From contig CAYTBN010000027.1 of NCBI GenBank assembly GCA_964436045.1, positions 1,409 to 65,408 on the forward strand: DNA of 64,000 nucleotides, given 5' to 3'. Source of the stretch: an uncultured Rickettsiales bacterium. GTDB lineage: Bacteria > Myxococcota_A > UBA796 > UBA9615 > CAYRNR01. This document shows, piece by piece, positions 9,912-44,222 of the stretch. Under the pieces are notes generated by a model that did not search any database, had not been told where the DNA came from, and saw only the letters and a list, made by a program, of their open reading frames with translations. Position numbers and translations under genes: made by a program. Every line of letters begins with the position of its first letter. Positions within the stretch are counted from its first letter, which is position 1.

Positions 9912-11819
9912 ATGGCTCTGAAGGTGCTGTACTGGGCCGAGGTCGTGCTGGGCTTCGGGGCCCTGATCTTCGTACACGAGCTGGGACACTTCCTGGCTGC
10001 CAAGTGGAACGGGGTCAAGGTCCTTCGGTTTGCCATCGGCTTCGACTTCTGGGGGATCCGGCTTTTCCGCAAGACCCTCGGTGAGACCGAGTACGTGATC
10101 GGTGCCTTCCCGCTGGGCGGCTACGTCAAGATGCTGGGCCAGGAGGACTTGCCCAAGAAGGGGGAGGAGGAGCCGGTCTATCCCTCCGGCCACTTCATGA
10201 CCCGTTCGGTCTGGGCCAGGACCCAGATCATCTCGGCGGGGGTGATTGCCAACTTCCTGCTGGCGTTCCTCCTGTGCTACGGCGCCTATCTGGTCGGCTA
10301 CCACCGTTACGTGCCCGAGGTGGGTTCGGTGGGCTTCGAGTCGCTGGAAGCCGGGCTGCGCCCGGGCGACGTGGTGGTGAGCATCGGCGGCGATCACGTG
10401 GAGTCGTGGACCGAGTTGTTCATGGCCTACGCGCTGTCGGAAGCGGGCCAGGACGTGGACGTCGTCGTGGATCGGGATGGGGAGCGGGTCGAGCTGCAGC
10501 TCCCCGTGCTGCGGGACCCCGCCGATCCGATCAACTTCCCCGACTTCGAGCGGGCCATCGGCCTGCAGGTGGCCGGCATCGTCAAGGACTCGCCGGCCGA
10601 GGAGCACGGCGTCCTCGGCGGTGACCACCTGGTCGCCCTGGACGGCGAGACGCTGACGGGCTGGAATCACTTCAGCGCCCTCGTCTCGCGCCGCCCGGGG
10701 GAGACCGTCGCCCTGGAGGTCCAGCACGTCGACGACCGGGGACGTCGGGCGGAGCAGGAGGTCATCCAGCTGACCCTGGACGAGGCGGACGACGTCTACG
10801 CCCCCAGCCGCGGCCTGGGGATGGGCCCGGGCGAGGACCCGACCATCGACGCCGTCCTGTCGGACTCGCCGGCCTCACGGGCCGGGCTCCAGTCCGGCGA
10901 CCGGATCACCGCCGTCGACGGCATCAACACACCCTACTGGCGCGATGTCTGGTTGGCGCTCGAGTACGGCGACGGGGGTCAGCCGCGGGCGCTGAGCATG
11001 GAGCGGGGCGGACAGCCCCTCGCACTGTCCGTGGTCCCCGAGGCCGCCCAGCACTGGGGCATCGGGATCTGGGGCCTGCCGGTCCTCGGTGTGGTCCACC
11101 GCTCGCCCGACGCGCCCCGCATCGGCGTCCTCGAGGTCGGCGGACCGGCGGACGCCTCCGGACTGCAGCGCGGCGACAAGCTGGTCAGCCTGGCCTACGA
11201 CGACGACGAGCAAGGTGAGCAGGTCATCGAGCTGTTCAGCTGGAACCACGTCTACGTGGTGCTCTCGCGCCTGCCGGACGACTCCTGGGTTCGCGTCACC
11301 GTCGACCGCGACGGCCTGGAGATGGTCAAGAGCATCCAGGTCACACCCGACTCCAGCGGCAAGCGACGGGGGATGGTGGGCGTCTACGGCAGCCTCATGC
11401 AGGAGAAGGTCCGCATGGGGCCCATCGAGGCGATCGGGCCCTCGTTGGCCAAACCCTTCACCCTGTTCGACGAGTTCCTCAAGGGCTTCCGGGCGATGTT
11501 CACGGGGCGGGTCAGCCCCAAGACCATCTCCGGCCCGGTGGGCATCCTGTCGATGACCTATTCGGCGGCCTCCCAGGGCATGGGGGACCTGCTGCTGCTA
11601 CTGGCGCTGATCTCGGTGAACCTGGCGATCGTCAACTTCCTGCCGATCCCGATCACCGACGGCGGCCACTTCATGTTCCTGCTGTACGAGAAGATCCGCG
11701 GGCGCAGGATGAGTGAGGAGGTCCAGGGCGTCCTGCTGTGGGCCGGACTGGCGTTCCTGCTGGCGGTCTTCGTCCTGGTCACGTGGAACGATCTGGCGCG
11801 AATCATCTTCAAGCAGTGA
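9912..11819 (+). CDS. rseP: RIP zinc metalloprotease RseP (site-2 protease) with multiple PDZ domains
   Basis: HELGH motif lies in the first TM region. Several PDZ-like segments follow. The C-terminal LDGG-like motif is ITDGGHFMF. Confidence 0.85.
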   Translation: MALKVLYWAEVVLGFGALIFVHELGHFLAAKWNGVKVLRFAIGFDFWGIRLFRKTLGETEYVIGAFPLGGYVKMLGQEDLPKKGEEEPVYPSGHFMTRSVWARTQIISAGVIANFLLAFLLCYGAYLVGYHRYVPEVGSVGFESLEAGLRPGDVVVSIGGDHVESWTELFMAYALSEAGQDVDVVVDRDGERVELQLPVLRDPADPINFPDFERAIGLQVAGIVKDSPAEEHGVLGGDHLVALDGETLTGWNHFSALVSRRPGETVALEVQHVDDRGRRAEQEVIQLTLDEADDVYAPSRGLGMGPGEDPTIDAVLSDSPASRAGLQSGDRITAVDGINTPYWRDVWLALEYGDGGQPRALSMERGGQPLALSVVPEAAQHWGIGIWGLPVLGVVHRSPDAPRIGVLEVGGPADASGLQRGDKLVSLAYDDDEQGEQVIELFSWNHVYVVLSRLPDDSWVRVTVDRDGLEMVKSIQVTPDSSGKRRGMVGVYGSLMQEKVRMGPIEAIGPSLAKPFTLFDEFLKGFRAMFTGRVSPKTISGPVGILSMTYSAASQGMGDLLLLLALISVNLAIVNFLPIPITDGGHFMFLLYEKIRGRRMSEEVQGVLLWAGLAFLLAVFVLVTWNDLARIIFKQ

Positions 11820-11822
11820 AGA

Positions 11823-11843
11823 GGCGTCAGGCGTCAGGCGTCG
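11823..11843. repeat. (GGCGTCA)3 tandem heptamer element, copy A
   Basis: It begins 4 nt after the rseP stop. A GC hairpin GGGGAAGC-GG-GCTTCCCC (11853-11870) plus a short T-run follows. Confidence 0.8.
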
Positions 11844-11852
11844 GGCGGAAGA

Positions 11853-11875
11853 GGGGAAGCGGGCTTCCCCGTCAG
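11853..11875 (+). terminator. Candidate intrinsic terminator after rseP
   Basis: Perfect 8-bp GC-rich stem with a 2-nt loop, followed by GTCAGTTTGG. Confidence 0.4.
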
Positions 11876-11888
11876 TTTGGGGTAGACG

Positions 11889-13595
11889 ATGGGCAAACAA
11901 TCCACGAACGAGACCTCGGCGCCCGCCTGGGCCGACACCCTGCGGCGGCGCTACCTGGCCGAGGAGGCGAGCCTCTTCCTGGTTCACGGCAACGTGCGCG
12001 ACCTGGTGCCCGTGGGCGACGGCTACGCCACCTTGGAGGAGTACATCGAACGGCTGCTGGCCAGGACCAAGGAGGTGGTCTGCTTCTACGACTACAGCCG
12101 CGGACTGCGTTTCTCCCGGCGCGGGATGAAGGAGAAGTTCCTGCTGACCGCCAACACCCGTCGCATCCTGCGTGGCCAGGCGGAGATCGACGACGACTTC
12201 CCCAAGGACCCGCTGCGGCTGTTCCCGATCCTCGAGGACTTCGTCACCGATCCTGCGGCCCACGGCGCGCTGGTGATGGACTACGTGGAAACCGTGGTGC
12301 CGGCGGGCGACATCTCGTTCATGGGCGCCGAGGACCGGAGCTCGCTGGTCACCCTGCAGCGCTGGACCGCGGACCCGGCGATCCTGGGCAGCGACAACCT
12401 GATCATCCTGCTGACCGAGAGCCTGCCCGACGTCAATCGCAAGGTGCTGCACTGCCCCCAGCTGTCGACCATCGAGGTCCCGATGCCGGACCTGGACGCG
12501 CGGAAGGCCTTCATCCGCCACCTGCGGGAGGAGTACCCCGCCCCGGGCATCCGCGCCGAGCTGCTGGCCCAGATCACCGCCGGGCTGACCCTGGTCCAGA
12601 TCGAGGGCATCTTCCGCCAGGTGCGACAGGGCGGTGGCAAGATCTCCTTCGATGTGGTCAGCGAGGCCAAGCGGCGGATCATCGAGCAGGAGTGCTTCGG
12701 GTTGATCGAGTTCGTGCGGTCGGACCACGACTTCAAGGCGGTCGGCGGACTCGACGAGAACAAGGCGGTGCTGAACCGCGTGTCGGACAACCTCAAGAAG
12801 GGGCGCAAGGCGCGGGTGCCGATGGGCATCCTCTTCGTCGGGCCGATGGGGACCGGCAAGACCTTCGTGGCCGAGGCGTTCGCCAACGAGTGCGAGCTGA
12901 CCTGCGTCAAGTTCAAGAACTTCCGCGAGAAGTGGGTCGGTTCCACCGAGGGCAACCTGGAGCGGATCCTCAACGTGATCAAGGCCATGGGTTACGTGCT
13001 GGTGATGATCGACGAGGGCGACCGCTCGATGGGCGGCGGCAGCGGGGAGACCGACGGCGGCACCTCGTCCCGGGTCACCGCACGGCTCAAGGAGTTCATG
13101 AGCGACACCAGCCACCGGGGCTCGATCATCTTCATCATGATGACGAACCGCCCGGACAAGCTGGACGCGGACATGAAACGCCCGGGCCGCTTCGACCTCA
13201 AGCTGCCGTTCTTCTTCCCCCAGACCACCGACGAGCGGGCCAACATCACCCGGGCCCTGGCGCACAAGAACAAGATCAACCACGGGATCCGTAGCTTCAA
13301 GAAGGTGGGCGAGGCCACCGACGGCATGAGCGGGGCCGAGATCGAGGCGGTCCTGCTGTCCGCCATCGGTCTGGCCGAGGAAGAGGGCAAGGACAAGATC
13401 ACCGAAAAGCACGTGCGCGACGCCATCGCCGACTACATCCCCAGCCGCGACACGGTGATGCTGGACTACATGGCGATGCTCGCCGTGTTCGAGTGCTCGT
13501 CCCGCCGGCTCCTCCCCGAACGCTACCAGCGGGTCGATACCGACGAACTCAACAACCGCATCCGCTTGATGCGGACTCAGCTGCTTACGCGCTAG
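11889..13595 (+). CDS. AAA+ ATPase with an N-terminal domain of unknown function
   Basis: Walker A is GPMGTGKT, Walker B is VLVMIDEGD. Sensor/arginine-finger residues are present. The N-terminal half of about 300 aa has no recognisable motif. Confidence 0.7.
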
Positions 13596-19675: not shown

Positions 19676-20143
19676 ATGCGAGTGCAGATCCTCACCGTCG
19701 GCCGGCCCCGCGACCGTGGGCTGAGCGGCCTGTGCGAGACATACCTGCGCCGCTGCGCGCCACTGCTCCGCACCGACTGGTCCGTTGTCAGCGCTGGCGA
19801 TCCCCGGGGGAGCAACCGACCCGAGCGCGCGATCGCGGCCGAGGAGCAACGGTTGCTCAAACGATTGGACTCCGACGCGGTGATCGTGGCGCTGGACGAG
19901 GGGGGCAAACGACGTGACTCCCGGGAGCTGGCGCGCTGGCTCGGGCGACTTCGGGACGACGGCCGCCGGATCCAGCTCGTGGTCGGGGGAGCGTTCGGCC
20001 TGGGGCCCGAGCTCCGCCGCCGCTGCCACCAGCAAATCTCCCTCTCGCCCCTCACCCTGCCCCACGAACTGGCCCTGCTGATCCTCACCGAGCAGCTCTA
20101 CCGGGCCAAGACCATCCTCGCCGGTGAGCCGTATCACCATTGA
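19676..20143 (+). CDS. rlmH: 23S rRNA (pseudouridine1915-N3)-methyltransferase RlmH
   Basis: 155 aa with SPOUT-fold motifs (ALDEGGK...LVVGGAFGL...ISLSPLTLPHELA). Confidence 0.9.
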   Translation: MRVQILTVGRPRDRGLSGLCETYLRRCAPLLRTDWSVVSAGDPRGSNRPERAIAAEEQRLLKRLDSDAVIVALDEGGKRRDSRELARWLGRLRDDGRRIQLVVGGAFGLGPELRRRCHQQISLSPLTLPHELALLILTEQLYRAKTILAGEPYHH

Positions 20144-20148
20144 GGATA

Positions 20149-20169
20149 GGCGTCAGGCGTCAGGCGTCA
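20149..20169. repeat. (GGCGTCA)3 tandem heptamer element, copy B
   Basis: It begins 6 nt after the rlmH stop and is followed by GGTAGGAAAGAGG, similar to GGAAGAGGGGAAG after copy A. Confidence 0.8.
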
Positions 20170-20218
20170 GGTAGGAAAGAGGCATGGGAATTGCTGCGCC
20201 TCCGGGAGGAGGTGGGCG

Positions 20219-20932
20219 ATGGGCTGGCGGGCGACTTGGATCGACGCGGGTCTGGGGTGTCTCGCACCGGATCCCTGCTGTGCGTGTGACAGGACGGCCG
20301 GGACGGCGGCGGGGTGGTGTGACGACTGCTTCGCGTCCCTCCCCTGGCAGGGCTCGGATCGCTGCGGCTTCTGTCTGCTGCCGCTGGCGGGGGGCGTGTG
20401 CGCCAGCTGCCGTCGAGAGCCGTGGGACACGGCCCGGGTGGCAGTCGAATACGGCACCCCGGTCCCGGCGATGGTGGGCCGCTGGAAGTTCCGCCCCGAC
20501 GCGGTCCTCTCCCGCTCGCTGGCCGCGGTGGTCGAGGAGGGGATCGCCCGTGACCCCGCACTCGGCCGGATCGACCTGGTGACCTGCGTCCCCCAACCCG
20601 CGGCGGCCTGGGGTCGGCGCGGGTTCTCACCGGCCCTCGATCTCGCCCGGGTGGTGGCACGGGCTACCCGCGCCCCCCTGGGCCATCCGTTGCGCCGGAC
20701 CCGCAGAGCGCCGCCCCAGGTGGGATTGACCGCCCGGGAGCGGGACCGTAATGTACGGCGCTTGTTCCGTGTACCTCCCTGGCGAAGGCACGCCATCGGC
20801 GGCCGGAGCGTGGTGCTGGTGGATGACGTTCTGACCACTGGCTCGACGGTCCGCGCCTGCGCCAGGGCCTTGCGGGCCGCGGGCGCTGCGCGGGTCGATC
20901 TGGTCGCCCTGGCCCGCGCCCATCACGCGTGA
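20219..20932 (+). CDS. ComF-family protein (zinc-finger plus phosphoribosyltransferase domain)
   Basis: N-terminal Cys-rich zinc finger (CCAC...CDDC...CGFC...CASC). C-terminal PRTase motif is VVLVDDVLTTGST. Confidence 0.75.
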   Translation: MGWRATWIDAGLGCLAPDPCCACDRTAGTAAGWCDDCFASLPWQGSDRCGFCLLPLAGGVCASCRREPWDTARVAVEYGTPVPAMVGRWKFRPDAVLSRSLAAVVEEGIARDPALGRIDLVTCVPQPAAAWGRRGFSPALDLARVVARATRAPLGHPLRRTRRAPPQVGLTARERDRNVRRLFRVPPWRRHAIGGRSVVLVDDVLTTGSTVRACARALRAAGAARVDLVALARAHHA

Positions 20933-28690: not shown

Positions 28691-31246
28691 TCAGGTGCCC
28701 CCGTCCATTTCCAGTAGACGCCGCAGGAGGATGCGTACCTCCGTGGCTTCGCGGCCGTTGGGAGCCAATCCAATATAGGTCTGATACTCGTTGATCGCCT
28801 GGTCGTTGCGCCCGAGTTGCTCGTAGGCCAGGCCCAGGCCGTAGTGCGACTCGGCGTTCATCGAATCCAGATTCACCGCGCTGCGGAAGTTGTCCGCGGC
28901 CTGCACCGCGCTTCCGATCTCGATGTAGGCCCAGCCGAGCCCCCGCAGCGCGCGAGCGTCCTTGCGGTTGGCATCCAGCGCCTTCTGATAGGACTGGATG
29001 GCCTCGGCGTACTGCCGCTTCGCGGCCAGCGCGTCGCCCTCCTGGGTGTAGTTGACCACCGGGTCCGAGTCCCCGCCCACCGCCACGAGTTCGAACGCCG
29101 GGCTCGGCGTCGGCGGCTCGGGCGTCGGTGGCTCGGGCGTCGGTGGCTCGGGTGTCGGCGGCTCGGGTGTCGGCGGCTCGGGCGTCGGCGGCTCGGGCGT
29201 GGGGTCCTCGACCTCGGCCTCTCCCCCGGTCTCGGCTCCGGTCTCGGCTCCGATCTCGGCCCCGGTCTCGGCTCCGGTCTCGGCTCCAGCCTCGGACCCG
29301 GCCCCCTCCGCGGGCGCTCCCCCTACCCAGACGCTGCTCCCCTCCTCCGGATCGGCCTCCCCGCCGGCGGCCGCCGCGCCGTCCTCGGCCACCCAGTCCA
29401 GCTGCCGATCGGTGCTGCTCTTCATCGAACGGACCACGTAGGTCGTTCCCAGGCCGATGGCGATGATCAGGACCGCGGCGCCGACGAAGTACCCCAGGCG
29501 GCCGCCGCTCCCCTCCTCTTCCTCGTCATCGTCGAAGTCGAATCCTTGATCAAATCCCTGGTCGTACTCCTCGGGCTTCGACTCCTCCCAGAGGTCTCCA
29601 GCAGACGAGGCTGCACCCACCGACGGCTCGTCTTCCGCGTCCATCCCCTCCCGGAACGACCGCTCGAAGCGCTCGAATTCCTGGCCCAGGTGCTCCATCT
29701 TCTCGCCGGGCGTCTCCGGGGACGGCTCGGTCGATGAATCGAAGCCGGCCGCGGTCTCGTCCATCGAGTCCCACATCGCCGTGATCTTCTCGTCGAGCAC
29801 GGGGCCGGAATCGGGCGCCCCGGGATCCGGCTCGGGCGGCGATGGCAAGGAGTCGTCGAGGCCCGGCTCTTCGGGATCGGAGCCGGGCTCGGGTTGGAAT
29901 TCGGGCTCCGGCTCGGGCTCGGGCTCCGGCTCGGGCTCGGGCTCCGGCTCCGCATCGGGCTCCGGCTCGGGCTCGGGCTCGGGCTCCGCCTCGGCCACGG
30001 ACCCGGACTCCGGATGCCCCGTCGCCCCCAGATCGTCCGAACTCCAGTCGATGCCGGACGCGCTGAAGTCCGGGCTCTGGCCCACACCCACGGCGGATTC
30101 GAGGCTGTCGTCCCCGCCGTCCGACGACCAGGCGATGGGCGATCCGTCGACCGGAGGCGGTTCCGGGACGGGCTCGTCGGCGACGCTGTCGTCGTCCGCG
30201 TCACGTCCCACCTCGTCACCCTGCAACGAGGGCTCCACCACCACGCTCTGTGCCGACGGGTCGTAGCGCGGCTCCTCGATCCCCTGGGCCGCCAGCCGCG
30301 ACATGGTCTCCTTGGCCGCCCGGGGGATCGGCCCCTGGAGACCATCTCCGGTCAACGCCTCTTGCAGTTCGGCCTCGGTGGGTGCCTGGGCGGAAACGAC
30401 CTCCGGAGACTCGGCCGTGACCATCTCGGCGGTGTTGGGTTCGAGTTCGCCGGTGAGCGCCATCGACGCCGTGTCGCCCCCGTCCGGCGCGACCTCCCCC
30501 GAGCTGCTGCCGACGATGCGGTGCTCTAGGCTGGCGATCTCGTCCGACTCACCGAACTCCCCGCTGGAGTCGCCGGTGCCGCTGTCGACGACCTCGGAGT
30601 ATCCTCCGCTGCTGGGGGCCGCCCGGAACTCGGCGCTCTCGGGTTCGACCAGATCCTCGGGATCCGGGGTTGCGGTGGGATGGGCGAGGTGGACCAGCTT
30701 TTCCTCACGGCCCCCCTCCACGTGCTGCATCACCTCGCGGGTGGCATGGATCTCGGGCTCGTCGTCGCCGCCAGCGTCCCCGCTCTCGTCGCCGCTCTCG
30801 TCTCCGGAGGCCTGCCGGTGCTCGCCGGTCACGTAACCCCGCAGCCGGTCCCGGGTGTACTGAAGCTCACGCCGCGTCTCGCGCAGCAGACGGATCAGGT
30901 CGAAGAACGGCCGCAGCTCGGCCACCCGTCGCACCCGCTCCCAGCTCTCGCCGTCCACCGAGACCTGGTCGGTGGCCAGCACGCGCTTCTCGACGATCCA
31001 GCGCTGGAGGACCGACAGGTCCCGCACGGGGTAGGTCTTGCCTTCCTGGCGGAAGAACAGGCCAGGACCACCGGTGGCGTCGGCGTCGAGCCGACGCACC
31101 TCGTCACCGTCGTTCCGTGCCCCCTCTGGGTGGAACACGGTGAACACGTGGCTACAGGCGGAGCACTTGACCTTCGTCCCGCCTCCGGAGATGCGGTCGG
31201 GGTCGAAGGCATATTCGCTTCGGCAATCGGGGCAGGTGATACGCAC
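28691..31246 (-). CDS. MJ0042-type zinc-ribbon / GYF-like / acidic low-complexity / TM / TPR protein
   Basis: N-terminus [10 protein letters not shown]...KCSACSHVF (MJ0042 finger). A GYF/DUF4339-like segment ([14 protein letters not shown]) follows. Then a long acidic region with (EP)n and (PTPEP)7 repeats, one TM helix and C-terminal TPR repeats. Confidence 0.7.
29101..29204. repeat. Seven tandem 15-bp repeats (GGCTCGGGCGTCGGY) encoding (PTPEP)7 on the minus strand
   Basis: Near-perfect direct repeats seen directly in the sequence, in-frame within CDS 28691..31246. Confidence 0.85.
29903..29990. repeat. About 15 tandem hexamer repeats (GGCTCS) encoding a poly-(Glu-Pro) tract
   Basis: Seen directly. 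In-frame within CDS 28691..31246 ([25 protein letters not shown]). Confidence 0.85.
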
Positions 31247-31338
31247 GGTTCGATTGTACCCCCGGTGGATGGGTCCGTGGTACGTGGCCCCCTTGGCGTG
31301 CCGCCGGACGCGGCCGGCGGTACGCTGGGCTCCTCCGA

Positions 31339-33078
31339 TTAGGCTCCGTCAGCTCCCTGGATCTGGTCCAGCAGATCCTGGGCAGCCGGGACGGATCCTG
31401 CCGCCTTCTCCAGGTACGGCACCGCCGAGTCCTTCTTTCCGCAGCGGTGGTACGACAGACCCATCTTGTAATTGTAGTTCGCGTTCCCCGGGGCTTTCTT
31501 GAGGGCCTCGCGGAAACTGTTGATTCCACCGTTGCAGTCACCGCCGCCGAGGGCCGAGTCCCCGAGGAAGGCCCAGTCCTCGGCCGTGGTCTCCTCGATC
31601 TCCACGGTCTGGGCATCTCCATCGATGGATGTGTCGCCGTCATCGGTCTCGGCCGGCGTGGTCTCCGCCTCTTCGCGCTCGCGCCGCTCGCGCGCCGCCT
31701 CCGTCCGCGCCTCGCGCGCCTCCTTCCGCCGCTCTCGCTCGGCGGCCTCGGCCTCGGGATCCAGCGGCGCGGGCGGGGGCGTGGGATCCTCGCGGGTCGT
31801 GGCGTCCTCACGCTCGATGGGCTGGGGAGTGGGGTCGACCGCCACGTCCGCGGTACCGCCGTTGGTCTCTTCCTCGGCCAGGATCTTTTCGCGCTGCTTG
31901 TCGAGCTCACGCTGGATCCGCTCGGCTTCTTCCGTGCGGATCTTCTCCAGCTCGGCTTCCGAGATGCTCGATCGGGTGCGGTTGTCCTCACCGTCGCCAT
32001 CGCCGCGCATCGCGCTGCGGACGACGACCCCGATCAACAGGAGTGCCAGCACCACCACGACGCCCACGAGCAAGGGGTTGCCCAGGGGCAGTGACCCGCG
32101 CTTGGTGGCCGCCGCAGGTTTCTTGCGGCGGGGGCGGCGGCGACGGGACAGGTCGACCTTCAGGGCGTCGCCACCCTGGAGCTCGTCGAGGGCCGCCTTG
32201 TTCAGCGCAGCCAGGCTGGCGCTGGAGGCCCCGATCGCGACGGCGGCATTCTGCGGCGCCCCCTCGGCGGGAGCTCCTGCGTCCTCCCCGGAGCCCGACT
32301 CGCTCGCAGGCGGCGTCGGCGCAGACCTGGCTGGGGCGGCGTCCGCCAGATCCTCGGCCGCCTGGATCTGCCCGAAGAGCCGGGCGAGGTAGTCCTCGAG
32401 TTCGTCGTCGTTGCCGATGCGCGACCACTCGCGGCCATCGTGGGATATCTGGTCCTCCGCGTTCACCTTGCCGTTGCGGATCGAGCGGCGCAGGGTCGCG
32501 ATATCGGCGAAGTCGTAGGTCAGGCCGATGGCGACCTTGACCTTCCAACGGTCGATCCCCAGCCCCTGGAAGTCCAGGGCCTCGGAAGCCCGCACCGTCT
32601 GGGATCCGGATGGACCCTCCACGTCGGCGGCGACAACCACCTTCTCGGTCACGACCTGCGGTCCCGACGGGACCTCCTCGGGCGACGGCCGGCCGCGCTG
32701 GACGCCGAAGCTCGGCGGCTCGCGGGAACCACCTGGGACCACGTCGGGCTCGCCGCGCGCATCGGCCTCTTCCGCGTAGTCCGTCGAGAAGAGGTCCTCG
32801 GCGCGGAGCCCGCCGGGGAGCTGGGCCGTCATCGGCGTCGGAGCCGTGCCGGAGACCGAGCCACGGGCCGGTCCGGGCGGCGTCACACGCCGGGAGGCCG
32901 GCTGGATCGCGTCGGTCTCCAGCGACACCACGGAGTGGGGGCCCGTCGCCTCCCGATCCTTGTTGAAGATGACGAACACGTGAGAACAACGGGGACAAGT
33001 GATCTTGGCCCCCCTGCCCTCGAGCTTCTTGCCCGGGAGCTTGTATTTCGCCTGGCAGTTCGGACAGGTGATGACCAT
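31339..33078 (-). CDS. MJ0042-type zinc-ribbon / GYF-like / TM / TPR protein (paralog of upstream gene)
   Basis: Start at [12 protein letters not shown]...CPRCSHVF (33078). A GYF-like segment ([14 protein letters not shown]) follows. Then a K/R-rich segment and TM ([18 protein letters not shown]), an acidic/ER-rich region and C-terminal TPR-like repeats. Confidence 0.7.
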
Positions 33079-37902: not shown

Positions 37903-38041
37903 GACGGTTCCTCCACGGTGACCGACGGTCCCGTGCATCTACTGAATGGAACCCGCCGCGGGGCAGGCTGTCAAGGGCGAGCCGGTGCGTGACGGCCCCT
38001 GGGAGCGCTGGTAAGATGCGTGCCTCATCGAGGAGGTTGTC

Positions 38042-38659
38042 ATGGCCGGACAGGGCGTAAACAAGGTGTTCCTGCTGGGGAACGTGGGCCGGGATCCGGA
38101 GCTTCGCTACACCGGAAGCGGCAAGGCCGTGGCCAACTTCACGCTGGCGACCTCCGAGGGCAGAGCGGGCGAGGGCGGCGAGGCCCGCACCGAGTGGCAC
38201 CGGATCGTGGTCTGGGACCGGCTGGCAGAGCAGTGCAACAACTACGTCACCAAGGGCCGGCAGGTGTTCATCGAGGGGCGGCTCCAGACCCGCTCGTGGG
38301 AGGACCGCAGTAATCAGAAGCGGCAGACCACCGAGATCGTCGCCCACAACGTGCAGTTCCTCGGCACCGGTCGCGGTGAGGGCGCCAACCGGCCACCTCC
38401 GCACGGAGACGATGAGTACGCGTCCTTCGACGCTCGCAAGGGCGGCGGCAGCGGCGGGTATCGCCAGGCGGGGCCGCAGGGCGGTGACGGCGGTGGCGGT
38501 GATGGCGGTGGCGGTGGCGGTGGCGGTGGCGGTGGATACCGTCAAGGACCGCCCCAGGACCGCGGCGGACCGCCTCCCCAGCGCGAGCAGGCCCCCCCGG
38601 CCCGCAAGGAGCCCGAGATCCCCTACGTGGACGAGGACGACGAGGACATCCCGTTCTAG
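38042..38659 (+). CDS. ssb: Single-stranded DNA-binding protein
   Basis: OB-fold N-terminus (NKVFLLGNVGRDPELRYT...WHRIVVW). Gly-rich linker. Acidic C-terminal tip DEDDEDIPF. Confidence 0.9.
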   Translation: MAGQGVNKVFLLGNVGRDPELRYTGSGKAVANFTLATSEGRAGEGGEARTEWHRIVVWDRLAEQCNNYVTKGRQVFIEGRLQTRSWEDRSNQKRQTTEIVAHNVQFLGTGRGEGANRPPPHGDDEYASFDARKGGGSGGYRQAGPQGGDGGGGDGGGGGGGGGGGYRQGPPQDRGGPPPQREQAPPARKEPEIPYVDEDDEDIPF

Positions 38660-38660
38660 A

Positions 38661-38696
38661 GCCGAGTCCGAGTCCGAGTCCGAGTCCGAGTCCGAG
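38661..38696. repeat. (GAGTCC) hexanucleotide microsatellite, about 5.5 copies
   Basis: Perfect tandem hexamers directly after the ssb stop, between convergent genes. Confidence 0.85.
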
Positions 38697-38704
38697 ACGG
38701 ATCC

Positions 38705-39196
38705 CTACTCGGGTTCCAGAGCCACCACCGGAACCAGGAACCAGTCCTTGGGCAGACTGCGGTCCGACAGGTACCACAGCTGCGTTTCGGTCCGATCCAC
38801 CAGGTTCAGGGTGGTCGATTCCACCTCGCGTAACGAGATGCGTATCTCGGCGCGGGTGTTCTCCTCGTCCACCAGCACGAAGTCGACGACAGCCTCGTCG
38901 ACCGTGGGATGCTGGGCCAGTGGATCCGTCATCCGCTGCAGGAAGGTCACCTGGTCGTTGGTGTCCTCGTAGTACTTGGAGGCCTCCTGGAAGTCGCGCC
39001 AGCGCATGGCGATCAGGTACTCGTCCACGCGCTTGCGGACCGCCTTGATCGCCTTCTCGTGCAGGCGCTGCTTCTTGCGGTACTCGACCTTGGCCTTGCG
39101 CTCCGGGTTGGCGGGCGCGAGGGTCGGGGTGGCCAGGGTCAGCGCGATGGCGGTCGCCAGCCAGCCCAGGTGAATGCGGGCTCTAGATGCCGTCAT
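38705..39196 (-). CDS. Small secreted hypothetical protein
   Basis: Signal peptide is MTASRARIHLGWLATAIALTLATPTLAPA. About 160 aa. It overlaps the upstream gene end by 14 nt. Confidence 0.45.
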   Translation of the reverse strand: MTASRARIHLGWLATAIALTLATPTLAPANPERKAKVEYRKKQRLHEKAIKAVRKRVDEYLIAMRWRDFQEASKYYEDTNDQVTFLQRMTDPLAQHPTVDEAVVDFVLVDEENTRAEIRISLREVESTTLNLVDRTETQLWYLSDRSLPKDWFLVPVVALEPE

Positions 39197-40808
39197 CGAT
39201 GAGGTCCTTTGTGGGCGCCTCGGGGAACCGGGGCATGGTGGGACGGATCTGCAGGCCGATGCGGAACCCCACGTAGCCCGGCTTGGGTAGCGCGGGTGGG
39301 TCCACGTAGGCGTCAAGCAGGGCCGAGTCGGGATAGGGGTCGACGGTGAACACCCGCGCCTGGGGCGGCCGCGCGCTCACCGCGATCGGCAGGTTGGCGG
39401 TGAGCGCGACGTTGGGCGTGAACTCGATCACCACACCTGGCTCGATCACGAAGGTCTGGTCGTTGTAGCGCTCGGACGGGGCCCAGTACCAGGGCCCGCT
39501 GAATTCGTAGCGCTCCGGGTTCCCCAGGTCGGGCCACAGCATCACGCCAAACCCGCCGGCGATGGTGGGTTTCACGCGCCACACCGCCACCGGGTAGAAG
39601 CGTAGCTTCCAGGCCATCCCGTAGGTACGGATCTGGCTGCTGCTCTCGATGGGGATCGGGTACGGCTGGACCGCGCCCGGCTCGTCGCCGAATTCGTATT
39701 TCTGCAGGATCACGTTCAGCCGGCTGAAGGTCATCGTGCCGGTGAACTCGAAGTCCAGGAAGGGCGTGATGCCGAAGCCGAGGGTGGCGCCCATCGAAAA
39801 ACCGCTTCCGCGGCGCGGCTGCAGGGTGGACACGCTGTCGGCCACGTTCCGCGGATCGTCCTGCTCGAAGATATAGCTGCCAGTGAAGTCCAGCTCCAGC
39901 GGTCCGAACAGCGAGCCGAACTCGATGCCGATGATCGGCTGGCCGAAGTGGTTGGCGGCCCGGGTCTTCCAGGTGTCCAGGTCCAGACGCGAGTTGTGCC
40001 AGCGGATGTACTGGCTCTTGGTCAGGCCCGCCTCTTCCCAGACGGTGGAGACCAGCTCGGCATCGTCCTGTTCGGCCAGGTCCTGTTCGCTGATGTGTGT
40101 GCGCCGGACCTCGATGCTGCCCGCCAGGGGCTGGTAGGCGCTGTCCGGGAGCATCAGGTCCAGCACCCGCAGCGCCGCGCGCTCCTTCTGGCGGCGGCGG
40201 CGATCCAGCTCCTGACCGTCGAGGCGCGTCTCGTCGGTGAGCTCGTTGCGGTCGTAGGGATCGGCGAGCTCCTCCAGGGTGAGCTCGACCGCCTCGATCA
40301 GGGTGGCGTCATCCTCGACCCCCAGCTGGACCTCGAAGCTGTACTCGAGCTCGGCGAGGCCCACGCCGAGGAAGGTGATAGTCACGATCCGGCGTTCGCC
40401 GTCCAGTCGCACGGAACCGCTGACCACCCGGTCGGCCTCGGCATTCTCGCCCACGATCAGCTGGCAGCCCAGCTCCTGGTCTGGCGGGCAGCCGCGCATG
40501 TAGAGCGACGCGCCGATGGTGGAGTTGCCGTCGTAGATCGCCGGGACGTCGCTGAGTCGGCGGACCGTCAGGTGATCGCGAAGCTCGAGGCCCTCGATCA
40601 GCACCCGGGTCATGCCGGTGGTCGCGTCGACCGAATCCACGTTGGCGGGGAGCAGCGGCACGACCAGCACCGCCTGGGCGGTCCGATCGCCCCGGGGAAG
40701 GGAGTAGTCTTCGGGGCTGTCCTCGTACGACCGGTCGGCGTCCTGCGCTGCCGCCGGACCGCCGATCAGCAGCCCCACCAGGGGCAGCAACCACCTCAGC
40801 TCACGCAC
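39183..40808 (-). CDS. Secreted/outer-membrane-associated hypothetical protein
   Basis: Signal peptide is MRELRWLLPLVGLLIGGPAAAQ. 541 aa. The C-terminal half is rich in alternating aromatic/Gly beta-strand-like segments, suggesting a possible beta-barrel. Confidence 0.5.
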   Translation of the reverse strand: MRELRWLLPLVGLLIGGPAAAQDADRSYEDSPEDYSLPRGDRTAQAVLVVPLLPANVDSVDATTGMTRVLIEGLELRDHLTVRRLSDVPAIYDGNSTIGASLYMRGCPPDQELGCQLIVGENAEADRVVSGSVRLDGERRIVTITFLGVGLAELEYSFEVQLGVEDDATLIEAVELTLEELADPYDRNELTDETRLDGQELDRRRRQKERAALRVLDLMLPDSAYQPLAGSIEVRRTHISEQDLAEQDDAELVSTVWEEAGLTKSQYIRWHNSRLDLDTWKTRAANHFGQPIIGIEFGSLFGPLELDFTGSYIFEQDDPRNVADSVSTLQPRRGSGFSMGATLGFGITPFLDFEFTGTMTFSRLNVILQKYEFGDEPGAVQPYPIPIESSSQIRTYGMAWKLRFYPVAVWRVKPTIAGGFGVMLWPDLGNPERYEFSGPWYWAPSERYNDQTFVIEPGVVIEFTPNVALTANLPIAVSARPPQARVFTVDPYPDSALLDAYVDPPALPKPGYVGFRIGLQIRPTMPRFPEAPTKDLIDDGI

Positions 40809-42919: not shown

Positions 42920-43516
42920 CTACAGGTCTTCCATGGGGTGCATCGTGCACTCCGCGAAGTTCCCATCGTAGAAATCGGTGCAGCAGTACCAGACCTCGAA
43001 GTTGTGGCCCAGATTCTCGCAGACGAACAGGGACTCGTCAACCAGCGGCGGCCAGGTCATCGTGTAGTCCAGGTCCAGCCACCAGCTGTCCCAGAAGCCG
43101 TTCAGGTCGTCCCAGCCGAAGCTGTACTCGTCCGTTACCATCTCCCAACCGGGACGCTCGATGCCGCCGTAGTTGCAGGGATCGCCGGCAACGTCGAACC
43201 CCTCGCAGTAGCCCGGGTCCTCGGTCAGGTCCCACATCTCGACCCAGCAGTCCTCGGCCCAACCGTCCATCTCGACGAAGAAGTCGAACGTGCCGCTGGG
43301 CGGCGGCTCGTCCGACGAGCTCGGCACGTCGACCGTGCAGCCGGTCTCCAGATACGCGTTGCCCATGTCGATGGTGCCCGTGTAATCGGGCCGGTCGTCA
43401 TCCGTCGTGTCGTCGTCGTCACCGGCGGAATCGTCGTCATCCTCGACGGTCGGACAACCCCACATGATCAATCCCAAGCCCAGCATCAGCACGAGGAACA
43501 GGTTCGTGTTCTTCAT
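42920..43516 (-). CDS. Lipoprotein with poly-Asp linker and Trp/Cys-rich C-terminal domain
   Basis: GGGAGAGGA RBS precedes the start MKNTNLFLVLMLGLGLIMWGC. The linker is EDDDDSAGDDDDTTDDD. The C-terminal domain has many W/C/D residues (WDDLNGFWDSWWLDLDYTMTW). Confidence 0.55.
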   Translation of the reverse strand: MKNTNLFLVLMLGLGLIMWGCPTVEDDDDSAGDDDDTTDDDRPDYTGTIDMGNAYLETGCTVDVPSSSDEPPPSGTFDFFVEMDGWAEDCWVEMWDLTEDPGYCEGFDVAGDPCNYGGIERPGWEMVTDEYSFGWDDLNGFWDSWWLDLDYTMTWPPLVDESLFVCENLGHNFEVWYCCTDFYDGNFAECTMHPMEDL

Positions 43517-43672
43517 TTGGTCCTCTCCCTTTTTCTCGTTGGCTTCCCCACCGACCCATGAACGGGTCGATACACGCCTCGTATTTTGCGGCAATTTAGC
43601 ATGGGGTCGAGGGCCCTGAACAGGGCACTTCGTTTCCCCATACCGATTTCAGGTTGCTAACATCGCTGATCG

Positions 43673-44083
43673 ATGATGGCAACCCCCCGCCGCCTCCCCA
43701 CCCTGCTCCCGTTGACAGCGCTGTTGCTGATCTCGACCGCCTCCCTCGGCGGGTGCGCCCACCGCCATACCGAAGAGGGCAAGGCCACCTGGTACGGCCC
43801 GGGCTTCGTGGGCAAGCACACCGCCAACGGCGAACGGTTCTGGCCCTGCCGGCTGACGGCCGCGCACAAGACCCTGCCCTTCGACACCCGGGTCAAGGTC
43901 ACCAACCTGGAGAACGGAAAGGTCGTCCGGGTCCGAATCAACGATCGTGGCCCCTTCGGCGAGGGCAGGATCATCGACCTGTCCCGGGCGGCGGCGGCGG
44001 CGATCAAGATGGTACGAGCGGGGGTAGTGAAGGTGGAGATCGAGGTGATCAAGTGGCCGAAGGGGCACAAACCGGAGTCATGA
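43673..44083 (+). CDS. RlpA-like lipoprotein (double-psi beta-barrel)
   Basis: Lipobox SLGGC, then [21 protein letters not shown]...[26 protein letters not shown] (DPBB). Confidence 0.75.
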
Positions 44084-44122
44084 CTCGGACTCGGCCACCA
44101 GAAGGAGCCAGAAGGAATATGA

Positions 44123-44222
44123 ACCACAGAGGACACAGAGGACACCGAGAGGAGGGATGGGAACGACGATTCCCTACCCCTTCCCAACCCCTCCTCTGTG
44201 CCCTCTGAGCCCTCTGTGGTTA
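44123..44222. repeat. Long imperfect inverted repeat (about 33-nt arms, about 30-nt loop), purine-rich arm / pyrimidine-rich arm
   Basis: Arm 1 is AACCACAGAGGACACAGAGGACACCGAGAGGAGGG. Arm 2 is CCCCTCCTCTGTGCCCTCTGAGCCCTCTGTGGTT. Arms are largely complementary with a few mismatches/bulges, and each is internally built of 9-mer direct repeats. Confidence 0.6.

Follow-up and report, generated by a model that had tools for sequence, protein, structure and literature searches.

Two AGGCGTC arrays just past the rseP and rlmH stop codons of an uncultured Myxococcota bacterium are heptanucleotide simple sequence repeats

The stretch of DNA that we analyzed (64,000 nucleotides, hereafter the window) carries (AGGCGTC)3 at two loci, in both cases on the coding strand and directly after a stop codon. 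Array A lies in the spacer between an rseP-like gene and an AAA ATPase gene, and array B in the spacer between rlmH and a gene for a ComF-like phosphoribosyltransferase; in both spacers the flanking genes are co-directional. The names rseP and rlmH, proposed in the first-pass annotation from the letters alone, hold: the ORF at 9912–11819 encodes Peptidase_M50 and PDZ domains and is therefore called rseP-like, and the product of the ORF at 19676–20143 has a SPOUT_MTase domain and is identical to a protein that NCBI names RlmH and lists under 'Myxococcota bacterium' (a metagenome-assembled genome, MAG). The features at the two loci are as follows.

9912..11819, + strand: rseP-like gene (Peptidase_M50 and PDZ domains), upstream of array A
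11820..11867, + strand: extra DNA in the rseP–AAA spacer compared with an 86% relative (approximate; borders inexact)
11822..11842, + strand: array A, (AGGCGTC)3, exact, 2 nt past the rseP stop TGA (11817–11819)
11843–11849, + strand: degenerate unit GGGCGGA after array A
11847..11854, + strand: purine-rich GGAAGAGG directly 3′ of array A
11853..11870, + strand: GC hairpin GGGGAAGC-GG-GCTTCCCC after copy A (arms 11853–11860 and 11863–11870)
11889..13595, + strand: AAA ATPase gene, downstream of array A
19676..20143, + strand: rlmH, SPOUT methyltransferase (SPOUT_MTase domain), upstream of array B
20146..20182, + strand: 37-nt extra segment ATAGGCGTCAGGCGTCAGGCGTCAGGTAGGAAAGAGG, absent from the 86% relative
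20148..20171, + strand: array B, (AGGCGTC)3.4, exact, 4 nt past the rlmH stop TGA (20141–20143)
20174..20182, + strand: purine-rich GGAAAGAGG 3′ of array B
20219..20932, + strand: ComF-like phosphoribosyltransferase gene, downstream of array B

Tandem Repeats Finder assigned both arrays a period of 7 and the unit AGGCGTC, with 3.7 copies at 94% matches for array A (11822–11847) and 3.4 copies at 100% matches for array B (20148–20171), and it returned no further period-7 array of at least 2.5 copies within the window. The arrays had originally been described as identical triple GGCGTCA heptamers. The repeat is real at both loci, but in that register the 21st base of array A is a G (GGCGTCAGGCGTCAGGCGTCg) and only array B is exact; the exact 21-mer common to the two is AGGCGTCAGGCGTCAGGCGTC, at 11822–11842 and 20148–20168. 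The spacing of 4–6 nt past the stop also needed correction, to 3 nt (A) and 5 nt (B) in the GGCGTCA register, or 2 and 4 nt in the AGGCGTC register. Two other parts of the original description stood: the gene-end contexts are equivalent, with both arrays on the coding strand and starting 2–4 nt past a stop, and chance is an unlikely origin, as 100 dinucleotide-preserving shuffles of the window gave 0 matches even when up to 3 mismatches were permitted. An in-frame TAG (20147–20149), two codons past the rlmH TGA, runs into the first unit of array B.

Both arrays are followed by the purine-rich stretches that had been noted there. A second AAGAGG at 11819–11824 overlaps the rseP stop and the start of array A, which, together with the AAGAGG after the array, leaves array A bracketed by AAGAGG; array B is bracketed by GAGG (20142–20145) before it and AAAGAGG after it. 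On the + strand of the window AAGAGG occurs 8 times, and three of the eight occurrences flank the arrays. This bracketing could be the microhomology or target-duplication signature of a copying step or could, alternatively, be a purine-rich seed context; AAGAGG-type flanks are inconsistent among the sites of the AGGCGTC family described below. We discarded the idea that a purine-rich tail is general to such arrays, having found one downstream of 9 and upstream of 7 of 115 unrelated arrays, with a background of 3%. On these counts the tail is specific to this AGGCGTC family.

The GC hairpin reported after copy A was confirmed, with arms of 8 nt. It lies mostly within the species-specific extra DNA and is followed by GTCAGTTTGGGG, which has no T run. 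An inverted-repeat search detected no inverted partner of either window array, only this separate 8-nt hairpin adjoining copy A. Folded alone, the arrays gave z scores of −1.6 and −2.3 (spacers and arrays together span −1.2 to −2.3), and the opposite strand folded at z of about 0; the sole self-structure of the arrays is the pairing of GGCGUC with a later GGCGUC through G-U pairs, at −8 to −10 kcal/mol. Consensus scans of the two loci, around 11.8 kb and 20.1 kb, detected neither a terminator-like site nor a nearby promoter-like one, and Rfam at the gathering threshold returned no match for the window and five related loci. A GC-rich stem-loop with an immediate T run, the hallmark of an intrinsic terminator, is thus lacking at both loci. 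The suggestion that the repeat is a terminator-associated motif fails on these observations, on the missing T run after the copy A hairpin, and on the position of the arrays inside probable operons. A G-quadruplex is not favored: the four GG tracts in copy B would allow two-tetrad quadruplexes only, and switching on the G-quadruplex option of ViennaRNA left the predicted hairpin structures unchanged. Because AGGCGTC has only GG tracts, a stable G-quadruplex is not expected.

We compared the two spacers with those of a graded series of relatives, obtained from protein searches and with conserved gene order. The rseP–AAA spacer is 69 nt in the window, 23 nt in an 86% relative (L140–142), and 22 nt, by gene coordinates, in a 90% relative (P0242). 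The short spacer of L140–142 reads CCGGACCGTCGCTGGGGTAGACC, and the 69-nt spacer of the window ends in the same ...CCGTCAGTTTGGGGTAGACG; array A is likewise absent from this position in four other loci (L143, L136, L137, and L139). The rlmH–comF spacer is 75 nt in the window and 39 nt in the 86% relative (L129–131), where it begins TGA-GGCACGGAAGTTGCTG and reads TGA-GG-CACGGAAGTTGCTG across the empty site, and array B is also absent in L135 (74%), L132 (71%), and L139. The short, array-free spacers of the relatives indicate that both arrays are species-specific insertions or expansions of about 37–47 nt each. Because the same gene pairs are only 22–39 nt apart in relatives, both arrays most likely lie inside operons and would be carried on polycistronic transcripts. 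Array B may predate array A, because an 88–90% relative (JGI sample 3300072015), represented by gene spacings only, has an rlmH–comF spacer of 85 nt, which fits an array, and an rseP–AAA spacer of only 22 nt. In the more distant L136 and L143, a single proto-unit stands at the rseP stop (TAGGCGTCA and TAGGCGTCC, in the contexts TAGGCGTCAc and TAGGCGTCCgcgggaGACGCC, respectively). To judge from these alignments, the pattern of presence and absence is not that of a conserved regulatory site, and the proposal of a regulator binding site loses its footing with the arrays missing from the orthologous spacers of close relatives.

Within the species, ten independent metagenome contigs with an identical RlmH had an identical spacer including array B, and four with an identical RseP had an identical spacer including array A. 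The arrays are therefore real and stable within a near-clonal population. Copy number did not vary among these 10 (B) and 4 (A) contigs, but because the contigs are 99.7–100% identical to the window, this is a weak test of variation that says little about mutability. A contingency locus switches a gene by copy-number polymorphism. The arrays, identical in near-clonal contigs, do not fit this description, and a site after a stop codon cannot shift a reading frame.

The rlmH–comF spacer also holds a separate feature. Beyond the 37-nt extra segment, positions 20183–20218 of the window carry a sequence that is common to relatives, GGCAyGG.ATTGCTG...CCTCC...GGAGG. This combination of a GGCAyGG..TTGCTG motif and a CCTCC-loop-GGAGG hairpin before the comF-like gene is kept in four diverged relatives (window 20183–20218, L129 10469–10507, L132, and L135), among which the remainder of the spacer changes. 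The GGAGG 3′ arm is Shine-Dalgarno-like, and the hairpin could be one that controls translation of the comF-like gene.

The first-pass annotation was right to regard the two copies as part of a dispersed family, as related genomes also carry AGGCGTC arrays at other gene ends. All period-7 arrays of at least three copies in 278 kb of family DNA consisted of AGGCGTC or a one-base variant of it. The window and its relatives together hold 15 AGGCGTC-type arrays, of which 12 lie 0–35 nt past a stop with AGGCGTC on the coding strand of that gene, so that all 12 of the gene-end arrays are sense. Every array of the family starts in the same phase, AGGCGTC, and AAGAG comes after several of them, as it does in the window. 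Copy number ranges from 2.6 to 7.7 units and differs even at one shared site (3.7/7.7 in L132 and 5.0/2.6 in L135). L135 comes from MAG GCA_964542165.1 (CAZITQ), which a separate pattern scan matched at five loci. The sense-only orientation at gene ends suggests either that the mechanism is directional or that selection acts on the RNA. Five of the 15 arrays overlap a TAG stop (T+AGGCGTC). A T stands immediately before 6 of the 15, and the first unit often supplies or overlaps the TAG stop; sites with TAG or T+AGGCGTC are at 20141–20149 in the window, L132 18676, L135 13173, L071 5013, L097 7645, and L046 5923.

Some arrays in the relatives occur as inverted pairs:

L132 18677–18702 and 18812–18865: inverted pair between convergent genes
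L135 13174–13208 and 13409–13426: inverted pair between convergent genes
L071 5015–5060 and 5150–5181: inverted pair between convergent genes
L030 956–980 and 1073–1105: inverted pair between divergent ORFs

The pairs enclose about 90–200 nt of DNA and fold into a long hairpin; that of L071 reaches −95 kcal/mol (z −4.9), with no shuffle equally stable. A box, GGTCGTCTCGC-N5-GCTCGACRTCGGATCC, recurs within the pairs of L132, L030, L071, and L107, that is, at four loci in two species. The units that bear it span L030 956–1105, L071 5015–5181, L107 7910–8000, and L132 18677–18865, with a core of about 90–110 nt. No copy of the core of the paired elements was found in the window. When metagenomes were scanned for GGTCGTCTCGC-N4-6-GCTCGACRTC, the 44 matches all resembled ordinary coding DNA and none lay beside an array, and local motif searches for the box were likewise unspecific; the box arises by chance in high-GC coding DNA. 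The sister lineages L132 and L135 share paired arrays in the IgGFc_binding / Zn_ribbon spacer, and the sister lineages represented by the window and L129 lack them there (the genes abut). To judge from this pattern, arrays are thus gained, kept, and lost over about 10–15% protein divergence.

Other repeats are also present in the window, some of them at gene ends. A perfect hexamer array, (CCGAGT)5.8 at 38662–38696, fills the 45-nt gap between the convergent stops of ssb (38015–38659, + strand) and a gene at 38705–39376 (− strand), and two units of CTCGGACTCGG, the reverse complement of CCGAGT, lie at 44084–44095 after the stop of a DPBB_1 gene at 44083, which makes CCGAGT a second simple repeat unit recurring at gene ends. 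Between the DPBB_1 gene and the next gene is an imperfect palindrome of about 100 nt (44122–44221) with arms of tandem 9-mers (CACAGAGGA ×2.8 and CCTCTGTGC ×2.9; 28 nt, 86% complementary), the same architecture of tandem repeats as hairpin arms that is found in the paired heptamer arrays of the relatives. A GC-rich near-palindrome at 42920–42965, GGGGCGGGCCCCGGCGGGCCCCGCCC, directly follows the stop of a gene at 42920–43648 (− strand). Long in-frame tandem repeats at 29101–30012 (a 15-mer ×6.7, a 12-mer ×5.8, and a hexamer ×20.7) are a low-complexity coding region within a large gene (28691–31348, − strand) for a zinc-ribbon and TPR protein, and its orthologues in relatives have similar hexamer runs.

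Beyond the family, a 20-mer of the repeat was present at at least 118 loci of species-representative genomes, often several per genome; among the matches listed, none was from the window genome, and the taxa included Actinomycetota, Acidobacteriota, Chloroflexota, Planctomycetota, Verrucomicrobiota, Pseudomonadota, Bacteroidales, and an archaeon. We considered and rejected the notion that the AGGCGTC heptamer stands out among organisms at large: viral contigs contained (GGCGTCA)3 at 11 loci, four heptamers of the same base composition at 4, 12, 1, and 27 loci, and a non-periodic 20-mer of the same composition at 0 loci. Because the control heptamers were about as common, the unit is ordinary and tandem heptamers are common in general. 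Of 103 assessable arrays in unrelated genomes, classified as coding or gene-end by frame composition under a GC1 > GC2 criterion that makes the classes approximate (a test on GC3 alone could not separate sense from antisense frames), 63 lay no more than 60 nt from an inferred gene end and 4 inside coding sequence; the 63 comprised 19 sense, 29 antisense, and 15 between convergent ends.

The arrays are head-to-tail 7-nt repeats of at least about three copies (3.7 at 94% and 3.4 at 100%), located in non-coding DNA near the end of the upstream ORF, built from one characteristic unit (no other heptamer reached three copies in the 278 kb), and variable in presence and length between related genomes. 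As every testable defining feature is present, we classify them as intergenic heptanucleotide simple sequence repeats (SSRs). According to the accounts in PMC4679880 and PMC4692102, heptanucleotide repeats are the most abundant long SSRs in most bacterial genomes, and Mrazek et al. (2007), as cited in those two papers, found them more frequent in the large, high-GC genomes of non-pathogens and proposed polymerase slippage on a 7-nt segment as the cause of the excess. The closest described cases are the G-rich heptamers GGGAATC of Xanthomonas and GGGGA(C/T)T of Nostoc/Anabaena, 89–93% of which are intergenic; a mean of 28 nt separates them from the upstream ORF, to which they lie much closer than to the downstream ORF, and they are on the coding strand, some of them in inverted pairs able to form stem-loops; they differ in length and sequence between close relatives, and were linked to no functional gene class and no identified function (Rehm et al. 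2015, PMC4692102). The AGGCGTC arrays resemble them as intergenic tandem 7-nt repeats near the upstream ORF, on the coding strand, and with some inverted pairs; they differ in their unit, which has only GG tracts. In addition, two Xanthomonas species have 90% of their repeats between the same ORFs (PMC4692102), whereas the site of array A is empty in 86–90% relatives and that of array B in the 86% relative.

Other described repeats match less closely. The TAACTGA direct repeats of marine Beggiatoaceae form sets of 2–6 copies, with many intergenic sets per genome that are strongly oriented to neighboring genes, recur in scattered phyla, point to the downstream start codon, and supply stops in all three forward frames (MacGregor 2015, PMC4679880). 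The AGGCGTC family likewise consists of oriented intergenic sets of one heptamer, but its arrays adjoin the upstream stop and have no stop in the sense frames, with TGA stops on the opposite strand. Cyanobacterial STRR sequences share with it lineage-characteristic 7-nt units in short, mostly intergenic tandem arrays and differ in unit and phylum, the present lineage being uncultured Myxococcota. The REP and BIME sequences of enterobacteria and pseudomonads are also short, multi-copy, and extragenic, and occur after stops and inside operons, and the paired AGGCGTC form of the relatives also makes a hairpin, but the window arrays are direct repeats without a palindrome. A REP is an imperfect palindrome of about 20–40 nt that can form a stem-loop, has a conserved GTAG/CTAC end, and is mobilized by a RAYT transposase. 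The first-pass suggestion that the repeats are REP-like stands only in a loose sense: intergenic, post-stop, multi-copy, and hairpin-pairing in relatives does hold, but the arrays have no palindrome and fold weakly, and neither a RAYT nor any other transposase was found among 45 ORFs scanned in the 64-kb window. Intrinsic terminators resemble copy A in standing after a stop codon with a GC-rich hairpin, and differ from it in their T run and from both arrays in the probable intra-operon position of the latter. As for MITEs, the window copies have no inverted partner, the relatives have inverted pairs around a core, and the short AAGAGG and GAGG direct repeats that flank the window copies are inconsistent across the family. 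A literature search for the AGGCGTC unit found no paper on it, the sole match being an unrelated primer, and AGGCGTC in an uncultured Myxococcota lineage is an addition to an already described repeat class.

Our preferred reading, which we consider probable, is that the two window arrays are solo, recently acquired members of a lineage-specific heptanucleotide SSR family, with little or no function at these sites. The next most probable reading is a functional RNA element of the 3′ UTR or operon spacer, REP-like in action, in which the array and hairpin would slow 3′–5′ exonucleases or partly terminate transcription and so uncouple rseP from the AAA gene and rlmH from comF. The location of the arrays directly after stops on the coding strand, the sense-strand bias across the family, the very stable hairpins made by paired arrays between convergent genes in relatives, the 7–8 bp GC hairpin of copy A, and the ability of GGCGUC to self-pair by G-U are all in keeping with it. 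It sits poorly with the empty orthologous sites of relatives that have 86–90% identical flanking proteins, with solo arrays that fold no better than many shuffles, with the absence of a terminator-like site at either locus, and with the inserted DNA of copy B having no hairpin of its own, and we regard it as unlikely. Less probable again is a tiny non-autonomous mobile element of which the arrays would be a footprint or a solo end. Such an element, when complete, would have an array and its inverted counterpart on either side of a core of about 100 nt and would insert just past stops, with a GAGG-like sequence as its target; each window copy would be a single arm that remained after the palindrome center was lost or after a partial insertion. 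Both copies are clean extra DNA against the empty sites of the relatives, with short direct repeats on both sides (AAGAGG...AAGAGG at A, GAGG...GAGG at B), all family arrays share a starting phase and several an AAGAG flank, and box-bearing array-core-array units occur at four loci in two species, as such an element would predict. Against this count the lack of a transposase or RAYT among the scanned ORFs; direct repeats that are short, purine-rich, and inconsistent at other family sites; a box at chance level in high-GC coding DNA, whose 44 metagenome matches included none with arrays; and the want of a core copy in the window.

Two further readings we find hard to sustain. The arrays could be two independent microsatellites that share a unit because GGCGTC is very common in this GC-rich genome; the window does contain 77 copies of the hexamer on its + strand and 69 on its − strand, and in nature heptamer arrays with many units are frequent. 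However, the two loci agree in unit, phase, strand, distance from the stop, and purine flank, the shuffles produced no match, and this one unit or its one-base variants account for all period-7 arrays of at least three copies in the 278 kb, which leaves independent origin very improbable. A direct-repeat operator or iteron bound by a regulator, with 3 × 7 bp making 21 bp or two helical turns, has in its favor only that the spacing is regular and that the two sites are identical; the arrays are missing from the same spacers in close relatives, they lie after stops inside probable operons and not at promoters (with no promoter-like site near), and the family range of 2.6–7.7 units is unlike a fixed operator, so that we give this reading almost no credence.

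Under the preferred reading of a lineage-specific SSR family, an array that has reached two units would grow or shrink by slipped-strand mispairing at replication, a mechanism that has been proposed for the general excess of 7-nt repeats (as presented in PMC4679880 and PMC4692102). Slippage alone does not account for two sites 8 kb apart with the same unit, phase, strand, and purine flank, which implies some copying or targeting step. New sites might be seeded from a proto-unit at a stop codon, such as the TAGGCGTCA at the rseP stop, or alternatively be copied from an existing member of the family, a route that would account for the common phase and the common AAGAG flank. In the relatives, the paired arrays would probably act as 3′-end hairpins, either ending transcription or shielding the mRNA. 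Arrays A and B, which are unpaired, probably have little or no sequence-specific function and would make the intra-operon spacers longer; the most to be expected is that the small GC hairpin accompanying copy A could protect the rseP transcript.

More speculatively, and in our estimate a long shot, the arrays may be what shows of an insertion system that is peculiar to this Myxococcota group and so far undescribed. Its tiny element, made of an array, a core of some 100 nt, and an inverted array, would be copied in one orientation to positions a few bases past stops, at a GAGG-like target. If so, the hairpins that it builds between convergent genes might act as terminators, and solo arms like the two window arrays would be leftovers inside operons.

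For annotation of the window, the arrays are best labeled as simple repeats, and not as regulator sites or terminators. Short 7-nt tandem repeats cluster just past stops, with each lineage favoring one unit. The uncultured Myxococcota case adds filled and empty sites, a sense-only orientation at gene ends, and both solo and paired forms, and these together make the family a usable comparative system in which copying can be set against local slippage.
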